Shown in pieces: positions 18,999 through 41,002 of a stretch of DNA of 64,000 nucleotides. This DNA is from Candidatus Woesearchaeota archaeon (lineage in GTDB: Archaea > Nanobdellota > Nanobdellia > Woesearchaeales > GW2011-AR15): contig JAVZBY010000004.1 of NCBI GenBank assembly GCA_038874655.1, positions 11,116 through 75,115 on the forward strand, in the 5' to 3' direction. The notes under the pieces were generated by a model. The model saw nothing but the letters and a program-made list of their open reading frames with translations, was not told where the DNA came from and made no database searches. The position numbers and the translations under genes were made by a program. Position 1 is the first letter of the stretch, and every line of letters begins with the position of its first letter.

Positions 18999-20138
18999 TT
19001 AATCTACAAACTCTATTCCTAATTCTGATTCAATGTCCTTTTTCTTTTTCTCTGCCAACTTTTTACTAGAACCAAAGATTTGTGAGCTTTTTACTCCTGT
19101 AATTATTAAAATTGTTCTTATAGTGCCTTCTAAATCTTCTGAAATTTGCGCTCCCCATATAACTCTTGCATCTTCATCTAATTTTGTTGAAACAGTTTCT
19201 ACAACTTTTCTTGCTTCTTCTAAGGTCATATCTGGTCCGCCTGCAACATTTATTAAGGCTCCAGTTGCACCGCTAATATCAACATCCAATAATGGATTTT
19301 CAATTGCTTTTTGCACTGCTTCAATAGCCCTATTTTCAGAATCAGATTCACCTACACCAATCAAAGCAACTCCACCAGAGCCCATTATTGCTCTTATATC
19401 TGCAAAATCCAAATTAACTAAACCTGTTTTTGTTACTAATTCTGCAATACCTTTAACTGCATTTGTTAAGATTTCATCAGCAACCTTAAATGCTGTATGT
19501 AATGGTAAATCTGGTGCTAATTCTAATAATTTATCATTTGGAATAACAATTAAAGTATCAACATTTTTTTCTAATTTTTCTAAACCTAAAACAGCATTTT
19601 CATATCTTCTATTTCCTTCCATGGAAAAAGGCATTGTTACTATGCCTACAACCAAGGCACCTAATTTTTTAGCAACTTCGGCAACAACAGGCGCGGATCC
19701 AGTTCCTGTTCCTCCACCTAAACCACATGTAATAAAAACCATATCTGCTCCTTGTAAAGCGTTTTTTATCTCTGCTTCTTGTTCTCTAGCAGCTTCTTCA
19801 CCAATTTTTGGAATACTTCCTGCACCTAATCCTTTTGTCAATTCTTTTCCAATCAAAATTTTTTTATCTGCTGCTGTATACAATAAATCTTGTGCATCTG
19901 TATTTATAGCAATTGTCTCTGCTCCAGTAACACCCACTTCTGTAATTCTATTAATAGTATTATTACCTCCACCACCACAACCAACTACCTTTATAGTTGC
20001 TCTTTGTTTTGCCAATAATTCTTCTAATTCTTTATCAATAGCACTTTGTTTCATATGCTCAATAGAAACACCTTTTGGTGATAAAGAAGCCCTTTGTGTT
20101 CCTGATTTTATTATACTATCCAATATAAACACCTCCAC
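18999..20138 (-). CDS. ftsZ: Cell division GTPase FtsZ
   Basis: GGGTGTG tubulin signature and the full FtsZ fold sequence. Confidence 0.9.
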
Positions 20139-20301
20139 CCATTAAAATAAAAATTTACTAATAAAAAATTTATAATTACTTAATTGTAGTGCTAATATTT
20201 AAACTTTTATATTTCAAACTATATTCAAAACCTCTTTTTTAATAAAAATGAAAGATTAATAACAAATTAATAGTTAAACAAAATATTTATTTAATTATTT
20301 T

Positions 20302-30654: not shown

Positions 30655-32232
30655 ATGTTAATGGCAAATTATTTTAAAAAATTTGTATCTTTTAAGATTA
30701 AAAGCAGAAATGTAAATTTATATTTTTCCATTCCAAAAAATAGTTCTGAATTTAATGAAGACTTACTAAATAAAGAATTTGAATTTTTTAAATCCATTTT
30801 ATTAAAACAGCATCCTTTTTTTCAAGATAATAAATTTAAAAATAATTTTGACTTAGCAACTTTGCCTAGAGATAATGAAGCTGAAGAAGAAGAAAGACTA
30901 TTAGCAAAGGATATTTTGCAACTAAAATTAAATTTTAAATATGTAAAAAATATAAATGAAATTAAAGCACCTTCAATAAAATATTTTGAAGAAAAAACTA
31001 TCATGCTTTTAGCACCTTTAATTGGACAAATATTAAAGAGTGATAATAATGTTATTCCTGATGGAGAAGGGGATTTCACAGTAAAAGTTAAAATTGGTAA
31101 AGCTATGGATTTAGGTGAAGAAAATTTAGCTATTGTTTATGAAACGCTCTCTGATTTAGAAACCTTATATCTAGGCTTTCATTATCAATTAATTGCAAGA
31201 TATCTAGTTTTTCCCTATTATCTTAGTGGTGAAAAAACATTTTTTAGTGCCTTTCCTATAAAATGTATAATACATGAGATTCAACATTATAAACAAATGA
31301 CTTTTACTAATTGGGAAAGAAAAGTAAAAAATGCCATAGAAGAAAAATTTACTACTCCTTCTAAATTAAGTCCAAATTCATTATTATTATTTTGGGCCTT
31401 ATGTGAATTATACAAAGAAGCTGAAGCATATTTCATGGATTCAAAAAAAAATCAAAGAAGAAAAATAGACATGAATTGGATCTATAATTTCAGAAAAAAT
31501 TTATTCACTATGGTCTCTCTTCCCAAAAATGAAAAAGAATTATGGGAATTTTATAACAAATATATCGATGAAAACACCTCTTTATATGTTAATGCTCTAT
31601 TAATGATGGCTACAATCTCTTTTGCTGAAGCAAAAAAAGATGGTCATCCTGAACAAATAATCTTATATAAAGATGTCAATCCAGAAATAAAAAAATTAGT
31701 TAATGAAATTGAAGTTATGATAAATGTTCTTTTAAATAATAATAGTGAGAATCTAAATCTTTTAAAAAATAAGATAATTGAATTATACAAATTACTAAAA
31801 CCTTACCTTCCTTATCTAATCGCTAACAAATTAAGAGAAAATATAAATAATCTCTATAATAATAATTTAACAATAATAAAAAAAGGATGCTTAATTATTA
31901 AAAATGAAGTTTTACCTTTTTATGATAGATTTGATTTGTCTAAATTAAATGAGATCATGACAAAAGAAAAAATATTTTATTATGGCCAAGTTCCTGAAAT
32001 TTATGTTAATAGAAGTTTTAATTTTGTAAAAAATTATGTTACATCTACTGGTAAATTATCTCCTGCAACACATTTCGGTTTTATAAAGAAATATGAAGAT
32101 GCATGCAACATTTTAAGAATAGACAGAAACAATAGAGTAATTGATTTATTTTTTTATAAAGAATTAAAAAAATTGACTCTCGAAAAAGATAAAAAAATGT
32201 CAGAACAAAAAGAGGCATATTTATTAGGATAA
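30655..32232 (+). CDS. Hypothetical protein with an HExxH motif
   Basis: 525 aa with no signal peptide. The only candidate catalytic motif is IIHEIQH. Confidence 0.35.
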   Translation: MLMANYFKKFVSFKIKSRNVNLYFSIPKNSSEFNEDLLNKEFEFFKSILLKQHPFFQDNKFKNNFDLATLPRDNEAEEEERLLAKDILQLKLNFKYVKNINEIKAPSIKYFEEKTIMLLAPLIGQILKSDNNVIPDGEGDFTVKVKIGKAMDLGEENLAIVYETLSDLETLYLGFHYQLIARYLVFPYYLSGEKTFFSAFPIKCIIHEIQHYKQMTFTNWERKVKNAIEEKFTTPSKLSPNSLLLFWALCELYKEAEAYFMDSKKNQRRKIDMNWIYNFRKNLFTMVSLPKNEKELWEFYNKYIDENTSLYVNALLMMATISFAEAKKDGHPEQIILYKDVNPEIKKLVNEIEVMINVLLNNNSENLNLLKNKIIELYKLLKPYLPYLIANKLRENINNLYNNNLTIIKKGCLIIKNEVLPFYDRFDLSKLNEIMTKEKIFYYGQVPEIYVNRSFNFVKNYVTSTGKLSPATHFGFIKKYEDACNILRIDRNNRVIDLFFYKELKKLTLEKDKKMSEQKEAYLLG

Positions 32233-32265: not shown

Positions 32266-33648
32266 TTAATTTTTTAGTTCATCTTCAAATATCTTATATA
32301 ATCTCTTCTTGAATTTCAAAGGTATTGTTCTAGAATCATGAATTCCGTAATATTTCTTTTTTAATTCCTCTGCTCTTGGTTCTACACTTTTTAATAATTC
32401 TCTTTTAAATTTATCTATTAGTTCTCCTTTAAAACCATTCTTATAAGCCAAGTAAAATGCATATAATTGCTCTTCTGAACCACAACCTGAAGCATCATAA
32501 CCGACAGAACAACCTTCTTTTTTTTCAACACCAAAACAAGAAAATAAATGCTCGTTTTCTTTAACTAACATGTCAGTCCTAAACCCAATACTTTTCGGAT
32601 CTAGATTATTAGCTAACATAAAAATATAAATTCTAGCACACTTAGAGCAATGCTCACACCAATAATGCTTTTTTCCATATTCATTTTCATCTGGAAAACA
32701 AGACATTTGATATTTACCAATTTCTTTATATCTCTTGTGAAGAATTTTCATAATAGCTAACTCATACAAAGGTTCAATAAAACTTGACACATTCATTCCT
32801 GTTAATAAAAAAGCCATATTATCCATTTCTTTTACCCAAAAACTTGTTTGATCATATACAGGATAACTTAAATATCCATCTTTATTAATATAAGTATCAT
32901 CGCAACTTTTTTCATCACCAAATAAAATATATTTTGCTTTTTCATAATAAGCTATGGGCATTATATCAAAGAAAAGTTCTGTCATTAAATGACCATATCC
33001 TAACTCTGTTCTAGGTAATTTCCAAAACCTATAATCATGAATTACACCTGTACTATTTTCAAAAGTATAAACCTTGACATTAAATTCTTTGGAAAATTTT
33101 TTAATTAATTCCTTTTTATATTCATTTTCTAATTTAACTGCATTATCTAACATAAAAACAGGAATTGGCTCTAAACCTAATTCTTTTGCTAGTGCAAATG
33201 TCAATAAACTATCTTTACCAAAAGACATATTTACTATTACTTTTTCTTTCAGATCAATCTTTTCTTTTGGATACTTTATTTCATAATTAGCAAAAGAAAC
33301 CTTCAAATTCAAAAAATTTTTAATTTGTAATTCTGTTGAAACATTATCTACATCAGCACAAAAACTTAAATTGTTTAAATGTGCATTAAATATTTGTTGT
33401 TTAAATAAAGGATAAGAAGTTTTAAATTCAATCTCTTTTAAATTTGAATTAGAAAATTTCCAATTTTGACTTAACATCTGTGGTAAGTGCAAAACTTTTA
33501 GATATGCATAATTATCAATAAAAATATCTTTGAGATATTCTGGATAATTATCCCATATATCTTTAGAATAAACTAAAAAAAAATCTTTTTCATCTATTGT
33601 TAATTTTAAACCATTATCTGTTTTTTTACAATCAACTTTCATTTTCAC
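32266..33648 (-). CDS. PP-loop ATP pyrophosphatase superfamily protein (PAPS-reductase/QueC-like) with C-x15-C-x2-C-x2-C motif, paralogue A
   Basis: MSFGKDSLLTFALA P-loop of the SGGKDS type. YQMSC..WCEHCSKCARIY cysteine cluster. Aligns along its whole length with the ORF at 35786..37183. Confidence 0.5.
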   Translation of the reverse strand: MKMKVDCKKTDNGLKLTIDEKDFFLVYSKDIWDNYPEYLKDIFIDNYAYLKVLHLPQMLSQNWKFSNSNLKEIEFKTSYPLFKQQIFNAHLNNLSFCADVDNVSTELQIKNFLNLKVSFANYEIKYPKEKIDLKEKVIVNMSFGKDSLLTFALAKELGLEPIPVFMLDNAVKLENEYKKELIKKFSKEFNVKVYTFENSTGVIHDYRFWKLPRTELGYGHLMTELFFDIMPIAYYEKAKYILFGDEKSCDDTYINKDGYLSYPVYDQTSFWVKEMDNMAFLLTGMNVSSFIEPLYELAIMKILHKRYKEIGKYQMSCFPDENEYGKKHYWCEHCSKCARIYIFMLANNLDPKSIGFRTDMLVKENEHLFSCFGVEKKEGCSVGYDASGCGSEEQLYAFYLAYKNGFKGELIDKFKRELLKSVEPRAEELKKKYYGIHDSRTIPLKFKKRLYKIFEDELKN

Positions 33649-33704
33649 AACACTCTATACATTGCTTATCTTTATCATTATTTTTATTTCTTAAATTCTA
33701 ATTA

Positions 33705-34787
33705 CTACCTTCTCAACAAATTATCATTTCTTAACTCAGCACTTAATTCTTTTAATAATCCATATCTTTTCATTGCTTCATATAGAATGCTTAAAATAAT
33801 ATCATCATAACTCATTCCTGCTGTAAAACATGCTTTTGGAAATCTTGAATTTTCCAAAGGATCTGGCATCAATCCAGGCAATGCATTAATCTCTAAAACA
33901 TTCGGAATTCCATTTTTATCCAATCTTATATCTAATCTTGCTAAATCCACACATCCTAAAACTTTAAATGTTTTCAAAGAAACAGCTTTTATCATTCTTT
34001 CTAATTCTTTTGAAATTTGTGCTGGACAAACTACAGGATCAACTGGATTATTTGGATTATCCCAAATCCATTTAACCTCATAAGAATCAAACTTATTAAC
34101 ATGTTCTGGTAAATAATCAAAAGTCACTTCTACAATTGGCATTACTTTTGGAGGATTATTTCCCAATATTGCTACTGTAAATTCTCTACCCTCTAAATAT
34201 TCTTCAACTAAAGCTTCTTGATGATAATTATTTATAACAAATCTTAATTGTCTTCTTAATTCCTCTTCGTTCTTTACTAATGAATCATTTCTTATTCCTT
34301 TTGATGAACCTTCTGCATTTGGTTTTACAAAAAGAGGAAAATTTAACTCTGGATTTAATTTTTGATTCCAATTACTAAAAATCTGAAATTTTGGTGTTGG
34401 AACTCCATAATATTGTAAAATTTCCTTTGTTCTTCTTTTGTCCAAAGTTAAAGCTTGAGTAAAAACACCACTTCCAGTATAAGGTATTCCGAGCATATCT
34501 AAAATAGCAGGAACTTGACTTTCTCGAGAACCTCCATTTAAACCTTCAGCTATATTAAAAACAAAATCATAATTACCATATTTAATTTTTTCAAAAAAAT
34601 CTTCATTTGCCTCAACAATTTCAGCAATAAAACCCTTTTTTTCTAATGCATTTTTAATTGCAGTTGGAACTGCCAAATTATCATACTCAGCATAATAATC
34701 TTCTGGCATATTTGCAGGTGGCTCTTTTTTTAAATTAAAAGCAACTGCAATTCTTGGTATAGGGTTTTTAAAAACAAACTTTTTCAT
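33705..34787 (-). CDS. ddl: D-alanine--D-alanine ligase family ATP-grasp enzyme
   Basis: NIAEGLNGGSRESQVPAILDMLGIPYTGSGV..LDKRRTKEIL parallels the DdlB block [43 protein letters not shown]. C-terminal LEINALPGL ATP-grasp motif. Confidence 0.75.
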   Translation of the reverse strand: MKKFVFKNPIPRIAVAFNLKKEPPANMPEDYYAEYDNLAVPTAIKNALEKKGFIAEIVEANEDFFEKIKYGNYDFVFNIAEGLNGGSRESQVPAILDMLGIPYTGSGVFTQALTLDKRRTKEILQYYGVPTPKFQIFSNWNQKLNPELNFPLFVKPNAEGSSKGIRNDSLVKNEEELRRQLRFVINNYHQEALVEEYLEGREFTVAILGNNPPKVMPIVEVTFDYLPEHVNKFDSYEVKWIWDNPNNPVDPVVCPAQISKELERMIKAVSLKTFKVLGCVDLARLDIRLDKNGIPNVLEINALPGLMPDPLENSRFPKACFTAGMSYDDIILSILYEAMKRYGLLKELSAELRNDNLLRR

Positions 34788-34812
34788 TTATATAGACCTC
34801 CATTTTTATTTT

Positions 34813-35154
34813 TTAAAAATACTTATCCTCTATTTTAGTATTATTTATAATAGCATTAATTATTAAAAAAAATCTTTTAAAATGAGAATAAAAAACAAAA
34901 AATAAAATCAAAATAATTGTAAAAAGAAAAAAAATCTCTAACAAAATAGGATTAAACCCTTTATTAAGGATACTCAATCTATCTCTAAAAAACTGATTAA
35001 CAAAAAATTGACTATAAAAAAGATTTAAATTTAATAAAATTAGAAAATTATAAAATAGACTTGAATTTAAAAATCTAGAATTTAAACTAAACTTTATCAA
35101 ACCTTTTTTAAAAGAATCAATCCTGAAAGACAAACTCAATTGCCTATTTATCAT
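34813..35154 (-). CDS. Small hypothetical membrane protein
   Basis: 113 aa with two predicted TM segments. Lies between the ligase and the acidic peptide gene. Confidence 0.3.
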   Translation of the reverse strand: MINRQLSLSFRIDSFKKGLIKFSLNSRFLNSSLFYNFLILLNLNLFYSQFFVNQFFRDRLSILNKGFNPILLEIFFLFTIILILFFVFYSHFKRFFLIINAIINNTKIEDKYF

Positions 35155-35342
35155 TTAGCTTTTATCACTTCCTTTTTTATTTTTATATTTTGAGTTTATC
35201 TTTGAAATTTTCACAATAGTTATATTTCAAAAAATTATTTTTAACAAAAAAATAAAAGAAAAAGTGGTATATAAATTTATTCATTTTTTTTATCACTTAG
35301 CAAAAAAAATTATTTCTTTCATTAATCTAAAATTGTAAAAAT

Positions 35343-35543
35343 TTAATACTTATCCTCATCATCTTCATAATCTTCGTAATCTTCGTCATCATAGTCTTCA
35401 TCATCATAGTCTTCATCATTATAGTCTTCATCATCATAGTCTTCATCATAATCTTCATCGCTATACTCTTCGTCATCATATTCTTCGTCATCATATTCTT
35501 CAACAAAATCTTCATCTTCATAATCTTCTTCGTGTCTAGCCAT
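35343..35543 (-). CDS. 66-aa poly-acidic Tyr-repeat peptide (D/E-x-D/E-Y tandem repeats)
   Basis: SD GGAGGT 4 nt upstream of ATG 35543. Sequence MARHEEDYEDEDFVEEYDDEEYDDEEYSDEDYDEDYDDEDYNDEDYDDEDYDDEDYEDYEDDEDKY. Coded by 15-bp tandem DNA repeats. Confidence 0.5.
   Translation of the reverse strand: MARHEEDYEDEDFVEEYDDEEYDDEEYSDEDYDEDYDDEDYNDEDYDDEDYDDEDYEDYEDDEDKY
35360..35520 (-). repeat. Imperfect tandem array of a 15-bp unit (catcatagtcttcat family) within the acidic peptide CDS
   Basis: At least four near-perfect consecutive copies over 35387..35450, with degenerate copies on either side. Confidence 0.6.
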
Positions 35544-35547
35544 TTTA

Positions 35548-35553
35548 ACCTCC
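35548..35553 (-). promoter_or_regulatory. Shine-Dalgarno GGAGGT for the acidic peptide gene
   Basis: Minus strand reads ggaggt-taaa-ATG, identical to the RBS context at 15123. Confidence 0.55.
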
Positions 35554-35785
35554 ATCCACACAAATAACTGAAATTTTAGTAAAATCAAATCTATTTAAAT
35601 CTTATTTTTTTTTAGAAACTAAAAAAAATTTAAAACAAAATTTATAATTTGCAAAAAATAATTTACAAATAATTAAAAAAATAGAAACTTATTTAAAGAG
35701 AACCTTTAATAAATAATATTAAAAATATATTTTAAAAAATAGTAAAAAAATTAAGAATAAAAATTATAATTAAAAAAATTAAAAA

Positions 35786-37183
35786 ATGGATGAGCTTTCT
35801 ATAAAATACAGCATATCAAAAAAAGGATTTAATGTAAGAATAAATAATAAAACCTATTCAATAAAATATCCGCAAATAATTTGGGAAACTTTCCCAAAAA
35901 AAATTAAAAAAATAACAATTGAAAATTTTGTTTTTTTAACTACATTTACATTACCAATGCTCTTAAATAAAAGAAAAGCATTTTTTCACATGAATTCTCC
36001 TTTATTAGGAAGTTTTTTTGTTAAACCAATTTTATATTATATCCCTGCATGTGCTGATGAATATAACAGAGATAGCTTTACATTACTAAAAAGGTTTATA
36101 AACTCCACTTATGATTTTAAATCTTATAACCCAACTTTTTTTGATTATAATCCTAAAGTTAATTACAGAAGTGTTCATTTATTCACATTTGGAAAAGATA
36201 GCTTGCTTTCTTATTGCTTAGCAGAAGAATTGAAATTAAATCCTATTTTATTATATGTCGAAGAGCCTGACACAGCATATAAAGATAAAAATGGAAAAAT
36301 AAAAAAAACATATGAAAACAAGCACAAAGACATATTAATAAAAAAATTTAGTGAAGAATTTAAAAAACCTATTTATAAGATAAAACATCAATTAAGCTTA
36401 ACAAGAGAAGCTCCTCACTTAGGTGTTGATGAACCTGAATTACCTTATGGCTCTCAATTAACTGAATATGCTCTATTAACTATTCCCTTTAACCATTACT
36501 TTAAAGCAAAATACATGGTATATGGGAATGAAGCAAGCTGTTCAAGTACTTATGTAAATAAAGAAGGCTTTATAACAAACCCTGTTTATGATCAATCCGG
36601 TGAATGGGTAGTTGAAATTTCTAAGGTTTTGAAAGTATTGACAAAAAAAATGTCAGCAATTTCTTTAATAGAACCAATCCATGAATTATTAATCACAAAA
36701 ATTTTACACACTAGATATCCAAAGCATGCTAAATATCAGATGTCTTGTATGGCAGCAAACAATTATGCAAAATATTCAAGATGGTGTCATAATTGTTCAA
36801 AATGCGCTAGAATGTATGTTTTTTTAAAAGCATTTAATATTGATGTTAAATCCGTAGGTTTTAAAGAAGATATGTTCAAAAAAGAAAAAATGCATTTTTA
36901 CACTTTATTTGGTAAACCTGAAGAAAATGCATTACCTTATGATTTAGCAGGAGTTGGCAGAGATGAAATGTTATTAGCTTTTTATTTATCTTACAAAAAT
37001 GGTTCAAAAGGTTATTTGATTAAAGAATTTGAAAGAAAATTTTTAAAAGAAGCTGAACAAAGAAAAAATGAACTTTATAAAGAATTTTTCAGCATTCATG
37101 AATCTTTAACAATACCAAAAAGAATGCACAAAAAAATAATTAACATATTTAAAGAAGAAATAGAAAAACTAAATTTACCATAA
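35786..37183 (+). CDS. PP-loop ATP pyrophosphatase superfamily protein with C-x15-C-x2-C-x2-C motif, paralogue B
   Basis: LFTFGKDSLLSYCLA P-loop and YQMSC..WCHNCSKCARMY. Shared blocks with the 32266 ORF: PVYDQ, IEPxxELxIxKILH, AFYLxYKNGxKG. Confidence 0.5.
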   Translation: MDELSIKYSISKKGFNVRINNKTYSIKYPQIIWETFPKKIKKITIENFVFLTTFTLPMLLNKRKAFFHMNSPLLGSFFVKPILYYIPACADEYNRDSFTLLKRFINSTYDFKSYNPTFFDYNPKVNYRSVHLFTFGKDSLLSYCLAEELKLNPILLYVEEPDTAYKDKNGKIKKTYENKHKDILIKKFSEEFKKPIYKIKHQLSLTREAPHLGVDEPELPYGSQLTEYALLTIPFNHYFKAKYMVYGNEASCSSTYVNKEGFITNPVYDQSGEWVVEISKVLKVLTKKMSAISLIEPIHELLITKILHTRYPKHAKYQMSCMAANNYAKYSRWCHNCSKCARMYVFLKAFNIDVKSVGFKEDMFKKEKMHFYTLFGKPEENALPYDLAGVGRDEMLLAFYLSYKNGSKGYLIKEFERKFLKEAEQRKNELYKEFFSIHESLTIPKRMHKKIINIFKEEIEKLNLP

Positions 37184-37276: not shown

Positions 37277-38290
37277 ATGAAATTAATCAAAGTAAAAGGG
37301 ACTAATTATCAAATTGGTTATAAATTAGGCCACATATTTTCCTCTGCAATAAAATATAGAATAAAAAAATTTAAAATAACTAAAAGATTAATTGATTCTA
37401 AAAAAGATTATTTAGAAAAAACTTTAAAACTCTGTGAAATATACCCTAATTACTTACTTGAATTAAAAGGAATTTCTGATGGCTCTAATACAAATATTTA
37501 TGAAATTTTAATGCTTAATTTACTAGGATTACTTGATATAAAAAGATGTAGCACAATAGCATATAAAGGAAAAAATAGTTTTATTGCTCATAATGAAGAT
37601 GGGGACACTTTTGAAAGAAAAAAAGATTTTGCATTAATAAAATATGAAAAAATAATTAATGAAATAGAATACAAAAATAAAAATAATAAAAAAAACAAAA
37701 AATTTTATTTTTACTCATACTTTTATCCTGGTGAACTTTTAGGAGCAACATTTTCATGGAATTCTTATGGTTTAATAATAACTGTTAATTCAATAAGGTC
37801 TAGATTAAGCAATATTCCAAAACTGCCAAGAGTTTTTGTAGCAAGAGCACTATTAGAAGCAAAAACAATAAATCAAGCAATTAAAATAATAAAAAATTCA
37901 AAAAGCTCTGGTGGCTTGCATTATCTTATAATGAAAAAAACAAATAAAAAATCAAACAATGTAAAAGAAATAGTTTCAATAGAAAGATATCAGAATTCTA
38001 CTAGTATTGAAAAAATAAATAACATTTATATTCATACTAATCACTATATTCACAAAAAATTTCTAAATAAAACAAAGCCACATAAAAATTCTGTAATAAG
38101 ATATGAAAGATTAAAAGAATTAATAGAACTGCATAGAGATAAAATAATAAATGCAGATAAAGAAATTCTTTTAAAAATTATGAGAGATAGAAAAACAAAG
38201 CCAAACTCAATATACAACAAAAAAAATGATACCAATCAAACTCTTGCTACTTTTATAGCTTTGAAAAATAAAAAATATGTATTTTTATAA
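37277..38290 (+). CDS. Peptidase C45 / acyl-CoA:6-APA acyltransferase-like Ntn hydrolase
   Basis: N-terminal G.NYQIGYKLGH. Candidate nucleophile in KRCSTIAYKGKN, followed by IAHNEDGD, as in the C45/choloylglycine-hydrolase superfamily. Confidence 0.5.
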   Translation: MKLIKVKGTNYQIGYKLGHIFSSAIKYRIKKFKITKRLIDSKKDYLEKTLKLCEIYPNYLLELKGISDGSNTNIYEILMLNLLGLLDIKRCSTIAYKGKNSFIAHNEDGDTFERKKDFALIKYEKIINEIEYKNKNNKKNKKFYFYSYFYPGELLGATFSWNSYGLIITVNSIRSRLSNIPKLPRVFVARALLEAKTINQAIKIIKNSKSSGGLHYLIMKKTNKKSNNVKEIVSIERYQNSTSIEKINNIYIHTNHYIHKKFLNKTKPHKNSVIRYERLKELIELHRDKIINADKEILLKIMRDRKTKPNSIYNKKNDTNQTLATFIALKNKKYVFL

Positions 38291-40810: not shown

Positions 40811-40889
40811 AAAACCTATTTATAAAATTAACCACTTTATAGTAGTTTTAAAACTATTTATAGTATTTTTAAAAGTTTGAAAGTTAAAA

Positions 40890-40962
40890 TGGGCCCGCCC
40901 AGACTCGAACTGGGGACCTACTCCGTGTAAGGGAGTTGTCATAGCCACTAGACCACGAGCCC
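40890..40962 (-). tRNA. tRNA-Val (anticodon UAC)
   Basis: Minus strand reads GGGCTCGTGGTCTAGTGGCTATGACAACTCCCTTACACGGAGTAGGTCCCCAGTTCGAGTCTGGGCGGGCCCA. Seven-bp acceptor stem with one G-U pair. Anticodon loop CTTACAC. T-loop TTCGAGT. Confidence 0.85.
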
Positions 40963-41002
40963 AAAACTAAAAAAATTAAAAAATAAAATAATAAAAACAT
41001 AT

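Follow-up and report, generated by a model that had tools for sequence, protein, structure and literature searches.

What reaction might be carried out by two paralogous PP-loop proteins that are encoded divergently, on either side of a ligase gene, in a genome of Candidatus Woesearchaeota? The question is raised by a 64,000-nucleotide stretch of contig JAVZBY010000004.1 (hereafter the window; G+C ~24%), in which paralogue A lies on the minus strand and paralogue B on the plus strand with 2.1 kb between them. Our answer is tentative and falls a little short of an even chance of being right: by analogy with a bacterial system built around the epimerase MurL, A and B might form, together with a Ddl-like ATP-grasp ligase, a ligase-plus-epimerase module for peptides with D- or beta-amino acids. 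The two genes and their conserved elements are the following (ORF, open reading frame; aa, amino acids).

32266..33648, minus strand: ORF of paralogue A, MurL-like PP-loop enzyme, 460 aa from a GTG start
33256..33648, minus strand: N-terminal domain of A (aa 1-131), a three-stranded meander plus helices
33202..33225, minus strand: variant PP-loop SFGKDSLL of A (aa 142-149), assigned from family conservation
32902..32919, minus strand: GDEKSC motif of A (aa 244-249) with the near-invariant C249
32638..32700, minus strand: Cys cluster C317-x13-C331-x2-C334-x2-C337 of A, predicted structural zinc site
35786..37183, plus strand: paralogue B, MurL-like PP-loop enzyme, 465 aa
36185..36208, plus strand: variant PP-loop TFGKDSLL of B (aa 134-141)
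36746..36805, plus strand: Cys cluster C321-x12-C334-x2-C337-x2-C340 of B

The NCBI start of A is the ATG at 33642, two codons downstream, which gives the 458-aa 'hypothetical protein' QXE31_04175 (P0001 in our numbering, where P numbers denote family proteins and L numbers, L001-L068 etc., sampled loci with relatives). An initial annotation of this DNA had described ORFs at both positions as alignable from end to end, and this is indeed the case, since BLASTP aligns A and B over their whole length (461 columns) with 38% identity, 57% positives and E 1e-103. All motif blocks that it quoted are found in both proteins, among them PVYDQ, IEPxxELxIxKILHxRY, YQMSC...WCxxCSKCAR and AFYLxYKNGxKG; the Cys spacing alone has to be corrected, as the first gap spans 13 residues (A) or 12 (B) instead of 15, followed by x2 and x2 as claimed. 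Conservation was counted in an alignment of 52 family sequences that includes both A and B. The P-loop comes after the strand E134-140 and has the variant form [ST]-F-G-K-[DE]-S, with Phe in place of the first Gly of SGGxDS. G144, K145 and S147 are invariant, position 146 is D or E, and Phe is found at position 143 in 47 of the 52 sequences; E174, Q267, S289, P293, Y307, S316 and the four Cys of the cluster are invariant as well. Given that the P-loop G, K and S and the four Cys are invariant in an alignment holding both copies, neither of them is decaying, an outcome that the initial annotation had allowed for.

The main clue to function is provided by the NCBIfam equivalog model of MurL, NF041275 (~447 positions, curated cutoff of 700 bits), which is matched by A with E 5e-6 (25.2 bits) and by B with E 7e-6 (24.8 bits). 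The model is matched by 50 of the 52 family members, at best with E 4e-13, and MurL is the sole characterised family that is detected by sequence in nearly all of them. Overall length is equal and the C-terminal 220 residues are in register: residues 283-451 of A correspond to model positions 276-444 (of 447) and residues 242-451 of B to positions 230-443. Overall, the matching region covers model positions 228-444, running from the GNExSC motif over the Cys cluster on to the C-terminus, and C249, which is kept in 47 of the 52 sequences, falls within it. In the divergent member P0242 the match reaches back over the P-loop region (residues 123-356 against model positions 137-361). Taken together, these profile matches establish A and B, at the level of sequence, as distant homologues of MurL. 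The scores are far under the equivalog cutoff, and therefore A and B are not MurL; the same holds for the divergent full-length relatives found in a search of 1.84 billion proteins.

In the accessible text of two reports (PMC5808125, PMC8788868), MurL has no recognised conserved domain and is described as an 'unprecedented' epimerase. As presented there, it requires ATP and Mg2+, releases AMP and turns terminal L-Glu into D-Glu in one direction only; its gene adjoins that of MurD2, the ligase that adds this L-Glu, and its proposed mechanism is adenylation of the alpha-carboxylate. Two of these features have a parallel here: conversion of ATP to AMP is expected of a PP-loop enzyme, and the MurL gene, too, stands beside that of the ligase adding its substrate residue (PMC5808125, accessible text).

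The resemblance has its limits. In place of the Mur ligase MurD2, the partner here is a Ddl-type ATP-grasp ligase; most of the hosts are archaea (DPANN, Bathyarchaeia, Asgard), and paralogue pairs are frequent. We know of no archaea of these groups that make murein; UDP-MurNAc-dipeptide cannot be the substrate here unless these archaea make it. Gene neighbourhoods were compared in a sample of 83 non-redundant loci, in which ORFs were called and classified by seed proteins and all-against-all clustering. Among the clustered neighbourhoods there is no Mur ligase and no murD2 or murein-pathway context; the neighbours are instead genes of the Ddl-like ATP-grasp, KamA-like, ThrC-like pyridoxal phosphate (PLP), GNAT and C45 types.

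As to the fold, a very confident AlphaFold2 model built from the 52-sequence alignment (predicted local distance difference test score, pLDDT, 94.9; predicted template modelling score, pTM, 0.93) has the Rossmann-like alpha/beta/alpha nucleotide-binding fold of the PP-loop ATP pyrophosphatase superfamily, with the SGGxDS-type loop, in its variant form, after the first strand. Had that fold been missing, the superfamily assignment made in the initial annotation would have fallen. The architecture of A and B is a QueC-type PP-loop core between a family-specific N-domain and a helical C-domain of ~115 aa. Placement in the PAPS-reductase/CysD/DndC families, also suggested in the initial annotation, has to be rejected: the PAPS_reduct and PP-loop matches of the Pfam scan around the P-loop are all sub-threshold, and that to PF01507 does not reach the gathering score. 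Neither A nor the family profile retrieved anything relevant from the sequences of the PDB, and no solved structure spanning the full length was found. A Pfam tag, PF26298, precomputed on two homologues, was not reproduced when those were scanned.

In a profile comparison, C317, C331, C334 and C337 line up with C188, C197, C200 and C203 of E. coli QueC, which we take to be its zinc ligands, and C249 pairs with the Cys of the QueC motif 'GVCETD'. The cluster is therefore read as a structural zinc site, much as the initial annotation had it, the identity of the metal being suggested by this alignment. QueC, the 7-cyano-7-deazaguanine synthase, is a single-domain protein of ~220-230 aa. A and B share with it the four-Cys site near the C-terminus of the core, although the first gap is x13 or x12 and not x8 as in the C-x8-C-x2-C-x2-C spacing of QueC. 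They differ from it in their length of 460 and 465 aa, with an additional 130-aa N-domain and 115-aa helical C-domain, and in their SFGKDS loop, as opposed to the SGGxDS type of QueC. QueC models of Pfam and NCBIfam give no match at E<=1 to A or B, and the neighbourhoods of the family loci contain no que genes. The Cys site also bears on the idea that A and B modify tRNA or nucleosides, for example as thiolases whose Cys motif would bind an Fe-S cluster, the ligase being a mere neighbour. We consider this very improbable, as the motif aligns with the presumed QueC zinc ligands and not with the catalytic Fe-S Cys of TtuA/NcsA, and a strong link to amino-acid enzymes recurs from phylum to phylum; moreover, the N-domain gave no sign of an RNA-binding domain such as THUMP or PUA (a separate search of the C-terminal domain was not made).

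The second line of evidence for a ligase-plus-epimerase module comes from the gene that lies upstream of A.

33705..34787, minus strand (same strand as A): Ddl-like ATP-grasp ligase, 360 aa, PF07478 E 7e-38

Linkage was counted in the 62 loci whose flanks both extend over at least 1.5 kb. In 52 of them a Ddl-type ATP-grasp ligase is encoded within 3 kb of the MurL-like gene, and one more has a fused ligase. The ligase gene adjoins the MurL-like gene on the same strand in 47 loci, in several of these with overlapping stop and start codons. Because of this recurrent linkage, the gene between A and B is to be seen as that of a partner ligase and not as the 'substrate gene' of the initial annotation, for which there is no support. 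That annotation thus stands in part: its reading of the fold and of the metal site holds, that of the substrate gene does not, and the MurL relation had been missed. The window ligase belongs to the D-Ala-D-Ala ligase (Ddl) family PF07478 and conserves the ATP-binding and catalytic residues, keeping K144, S150/S151, K215, R255, D257, E270, N272 and S281 of E. coli DdlB. At the same time it stays below every NCBIfam Ddl cutoff (199.7 bits against 243 for the best model), and its substrate region departs from DdlB by Y216W, L282R and extra insertions. Another difference from Ddl is the fusion of the ligase to a KamA-type enzyme in sister lineages.

L012 45-2138, L014 7950-10007, L019 4673-6817, L062 5750-7876: fusion ORFs of ~700 aa, KamA-type aminomutase plus Ddl-like ligase, beside a MurL-like gene
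L011 1242-3328: the same KamA-ligase fusion, frameshifted

The nearest relatives of the window ligase include the ligase halves of these fusions. More generally, in DPANN loci a radical-SAM 2,3-aminomutase of the KamA family accompanies the pair of MurL-like enzyme and ligase; the models that come closest to these proteins are those of lysine and glutamate 2,3-aminomutases, although the cutoffs of both are missed. The fusion ties the supply of a beta-amino acid to the ligase and thereby indicates a beta-amino acid as ligase substrate. Over a broad phylogenetic range, the family is strongly linked to ligases of the Ddl type and to enzymes for making or handling unusual amino acids.

The Ddl-type partner might also be taken to mean that the steps run in the opposite order, with the MurL-like enzymes as ATP-driven racemases of free amino acids that would act via aminoacyl-AMP and feed a D-specific Ddl-type ligase in hosts without PLP racemases. 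Membership of the partner in the D-Ala-D-Ala ligase family with its DdlB catalytic residues retained would fit, and two paralogues could provide two different D-amino acids. We nevertheless find this order quite improbable: MurL works on a peptidyl C-terminus (PMC5808125, accessible text), the ligase has an altered pocket and scores below all Ddl cutoffs, and the KamA fusion points to a beta-amino acid as its substrate.

If, as we tentatively propose, the ligase acts first, the Ddl-like enzyme would join amino acids, one of which, in the sister lineages, would be a beta-amino acid from the fused or adjacent KamA-type aminomutase. The MurL-like enzyme would then adenylate the new C-terminal alpha-carboxylate and so make the alpha-proton more acidic; the residue would be deprotonated and reprotonated on the opposite face, and hydrolysis of the adenylate would leave a D-residue. 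The two paralogues may each be in charge of a different residue or step, or combine into a heterodimer, and the product would be a small ribosome-independent peptide with D- and/or beta-amino acids. A PP-loop, QueC-like core is a type of scaffold that performs adenylations, which gives this hypothesis its structural basis. A and B would accordingly be regarded as anciently diverged members of a carboxylate-adenylating family, in which we infer adenylation and inversion from the analogy with MurD2/MurL.

Several observations weigh against the proposal. The MurL model is not matched by the N-terminal 130 aa alone, nor by the P-loop segment by itself, and with ~25 bits where the cutoff is 700, a function that has diverged from that of MurL is possible. 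The proposed chemistry would be unable to epimerise a C-terminal beta-amino acid, and there is no KamA gene within the 64-kb window. The number of ligase genes does not follow that of MurL-like genes (1:2 in the window, 3:2 in L001, 3:1 in L062), and in some adequately flanked loci, such as L025, L056, L065 and L067, ATP-grasp genes are missing within 3 kb. QueC and Cap9, which come closest in structure, make amides, nitriles or conjugates and not epimers, and a central fragment weakly matches the model of the WbuX amidotransferase (E 1e-4).

The last two observations leave room for nitrogen transfer, the main alternative to epimerisation. Here, carboxylate adenylation would be followed by acyl transfer to a nitrogen nucleophile, yielding an amide, amidine, nitrile, lactam or peptide bond, as in QueC, Cap9, WbuX, asparagine synthetase and beta-lactam synthetase, and A and B would be additional ligases or amidotransferases of the same peptide pathway and not epimerases. 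We think it unlikely, although not to the degree of the other alternatives: MurL is the one characterised family that nearly all members match in sequence, the clustered neighbourhoods show no conserved gene for a glutaminase or another ammonia donor, and no QueC, asparagine-synthetase or WbuX model of Pfam or NCBIfam is reached at threshold. A defence role like that of Cap9, the QueC-like protein of cyclic oligonucleotide-based antiphage signalling systems (CBASS), was considered and rejected, there being no PADLOC hit and no CD-NTase gene in the neighbourhoods.

Returning to ligation followed by inversion, one might go further and speculate, doubtful as this is, that DPANN, Bathyarchaeia and Asgard archaea have an undescribed peptide assembly line independent of both ribosomes and nonribosomal peptide synthetases (NRPS). 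Each ATP-grasp ligation would be followed by a MurL-like, ATP-driven inversion of the C-terminus, the building blocks would come from 2,3-aminomutases or PLP enzymes, and the products would be protease-resistant D-/beta-peptides serving as osmolyte, envelope component or signal. Our literature searches returned nothing on this gene cluster or on MurL-like enzymes in archaea. Should the proposed function be correct, D-amino-acid peptides would be made without racemases or NRPS, and metabolites so far unseen in archaea would be predicted. MurL itself, described in the accessible literature without known domains or a recognisable mechanism, would gain a fold and a catalytic scaffold, as its relatives in this family have a PP-loop scaffold of the QueC type that includes a predicted zinc site. 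The module of ligase and MurL-like enzyme is spread over several archaeal phyla, in many small genomes, and a family that has no Pfam model, and whose members are called 'hypothetical protein' wherever they carry a source name, makes a clean target for enzymology.

How widespread is the family, and how old is the pair? A phmmer-type search gave 244 relatives at 90% clustering, and among the 120 matches listed, all those with a source name are called 'hypothetical protein'; the family is unannotated and without a Pfam model. The HMMER scan of the 1.84 billion representatives found 190 proteins at E<=1e-30, 511 at E<=1e-10 and 1437 at E<=1e-3. In one-genome-per-species data, a relative is encoded in 244 stretches, each confirmed by tblastn, while a tblastn search of plasmids found none. 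The hosts are mostly DPANN (Woese-, Nano-, Aenigmat- and Iainarchaeota), with many Bathyarchaeia, Thor-/Hermodarchaeota and Nitrososphaeria and a few bacterial metagenome-assembled genomes. The closest relative of B (739 bits), at L068 9686-11362, lies on a contig binned as the bacterium Chitinispirillaceae, which may be mis-binned Woesearchaeota or a recent transfer.

A neighbour-joining tree of 92 family sequences places A and B in two deep clades; mean identity is 52% among the members of clade A, 47% among those of clade B and 37% across the two. No more than four positions set the clades cleanly apart; at one of these, the first residue of the P-loop, clade A has S and clade B has T. Orthologues of the window and L001 are 61% (A) and 58% (B) identical, whereas paralogues within a genome reach only 38-42%; the duplication is therefore old, and the copies have been retained intact and linked. 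The age of the duplication and the joint retention of its products had been put forward as a check in the initial annotation, and the outcome is an ancient event, with an A-type gene kept beside a B-type gene in four sampled genomes, namely those of the window, L001, L014 and L048. Further paralogue pairs occur in L007, L021, L022, L024 and L056.

Outside DPANN, the typical gene order in Bathyarchaeia and Asgard loci is a ThrC-like PLP enzyme (PRK06381; 37 loci), then the MurL-like gene, then the Ddl-like gene, and GGCT-like, Amidohydro_3 and enolase-superfamily proteins are often encoded close by. L001 and L064 have additional ATP-grasp genes and a GNAT; neither a GNAT nor a second ATP-grasp gene is present within the window. 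There is also a variant cluster.

L022 167-4774, L024 1305-5909, L047 9992-12455: variant cluster free of ATP-grasp genes

In L022 and L024 it consists of a pair of MurL-like genes, the stop codon of one overlapping the start codon of the other, and, after them, DUF1611 (Rossmann and P-loop domains) and a DapF-like epimerase; L047 has one MurL-like gene, followed by DUF1611.

Closer to A and B, the following genes of the window and a related Woesearchaeota genome deserve mention.

35343..35543, minus strand: acidic protein, 66 aa, 68% D+E, with YDDED-type repeats and GGAGGT 4 nt upstream of the ATG
L001 8497-8646, plus strand: 50-aa acidic counterpart ending in GGDEW, at the same position
37277..38290, plus strand: C45-family autoproteolytic acyltransferase/hydrolase, 337 aa, downstream of B; PF03417 E 5e-29, NF040521 154 bits against a cutoff of 85
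34813..35154, minus strand: hydrophobic ORF, 113 aa, rich in F, L, I and N, between the acidic gene and the ligase; reality uncertain
30655-32232, plus strand: 525-aa protein with an HExxH motif (HEIQH at 31273-31287), between A and ScpA

The acidic protein, MARHEEDYEDED...DEDKY, ends in Tyr, and its coding region is made up of about ten copies of a 15-bp tandem repeat. Its place between the paralogues raises the possibility that the ligase and the PP-loop enzymes modify its C-terminus, as RimK, LysX and tubulin-tyrosine ligase (TTL) do on acidic tails, with the C45 hydrolase trimming the tail. A strong ribosome-binding site in front of this D/E/Y-rich gene, the Trp-ending counterpart found at this place in L001, a genome with an A-type orthologue 61% identical to A, and a C45 gene confined to these two lineages (it stands beside B only in the window and L001/L002) would be in line with such a role. 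Yet the gene is a low-complexity repeat, the ligase is of the Ddl and not of the RimK or TTL type, and the other loci have no equally acidic small ORF at the matching position upstream of the ligase, the two weaker matches in L029 and L036 being located elsewhere in those loci. With no counterpart there, and a presence in two lineages only, the acidic protein cannot be the general substrate of the family, and that role was rejected. The modification of its tail seems to us hardly credible and ranks, with free-amino-acid racemisation and RNA modification, among the less likely readings. The ORF itself is probably a genuine, lineage-specific gene, and its link to the enzymes is a candidate only.

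The 113-aa ORF gave no family match above threshold and is possibly a small membrane protein; by a rough estimate, an open frame of this length is unlikely to arise by chance at 24% G+C. Judging from its motif, the 525-aa protein is possibly a zinc metallopeptidase; it has no significant Pfam, NCBIfam or PADLOC hit, an ArgoN match of E 0.003 being below threshold. At the place of its gene, the related locus L001 has a GNAT and two ATP-grasp ligases, and L010 has nothing. Elsewhere in the window, ORFs of 379 aa (18999-20138, minus strand) and 370 aa (19033-20145, plus strand) overlap almost completely on opposite strands, which is unusual for such long ORFs in AT-rich DNA, where stop codons are frequent. 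Neighbouring genes, among them those for ScpA, for a zinc ribbon of the TFIIS type and for the ribosomal proteins S6e and L15e, fit an archaeal origin. The window has a single tRNA gene, tRNA-Val (TAC) at 40889-40963 on the minus strand.

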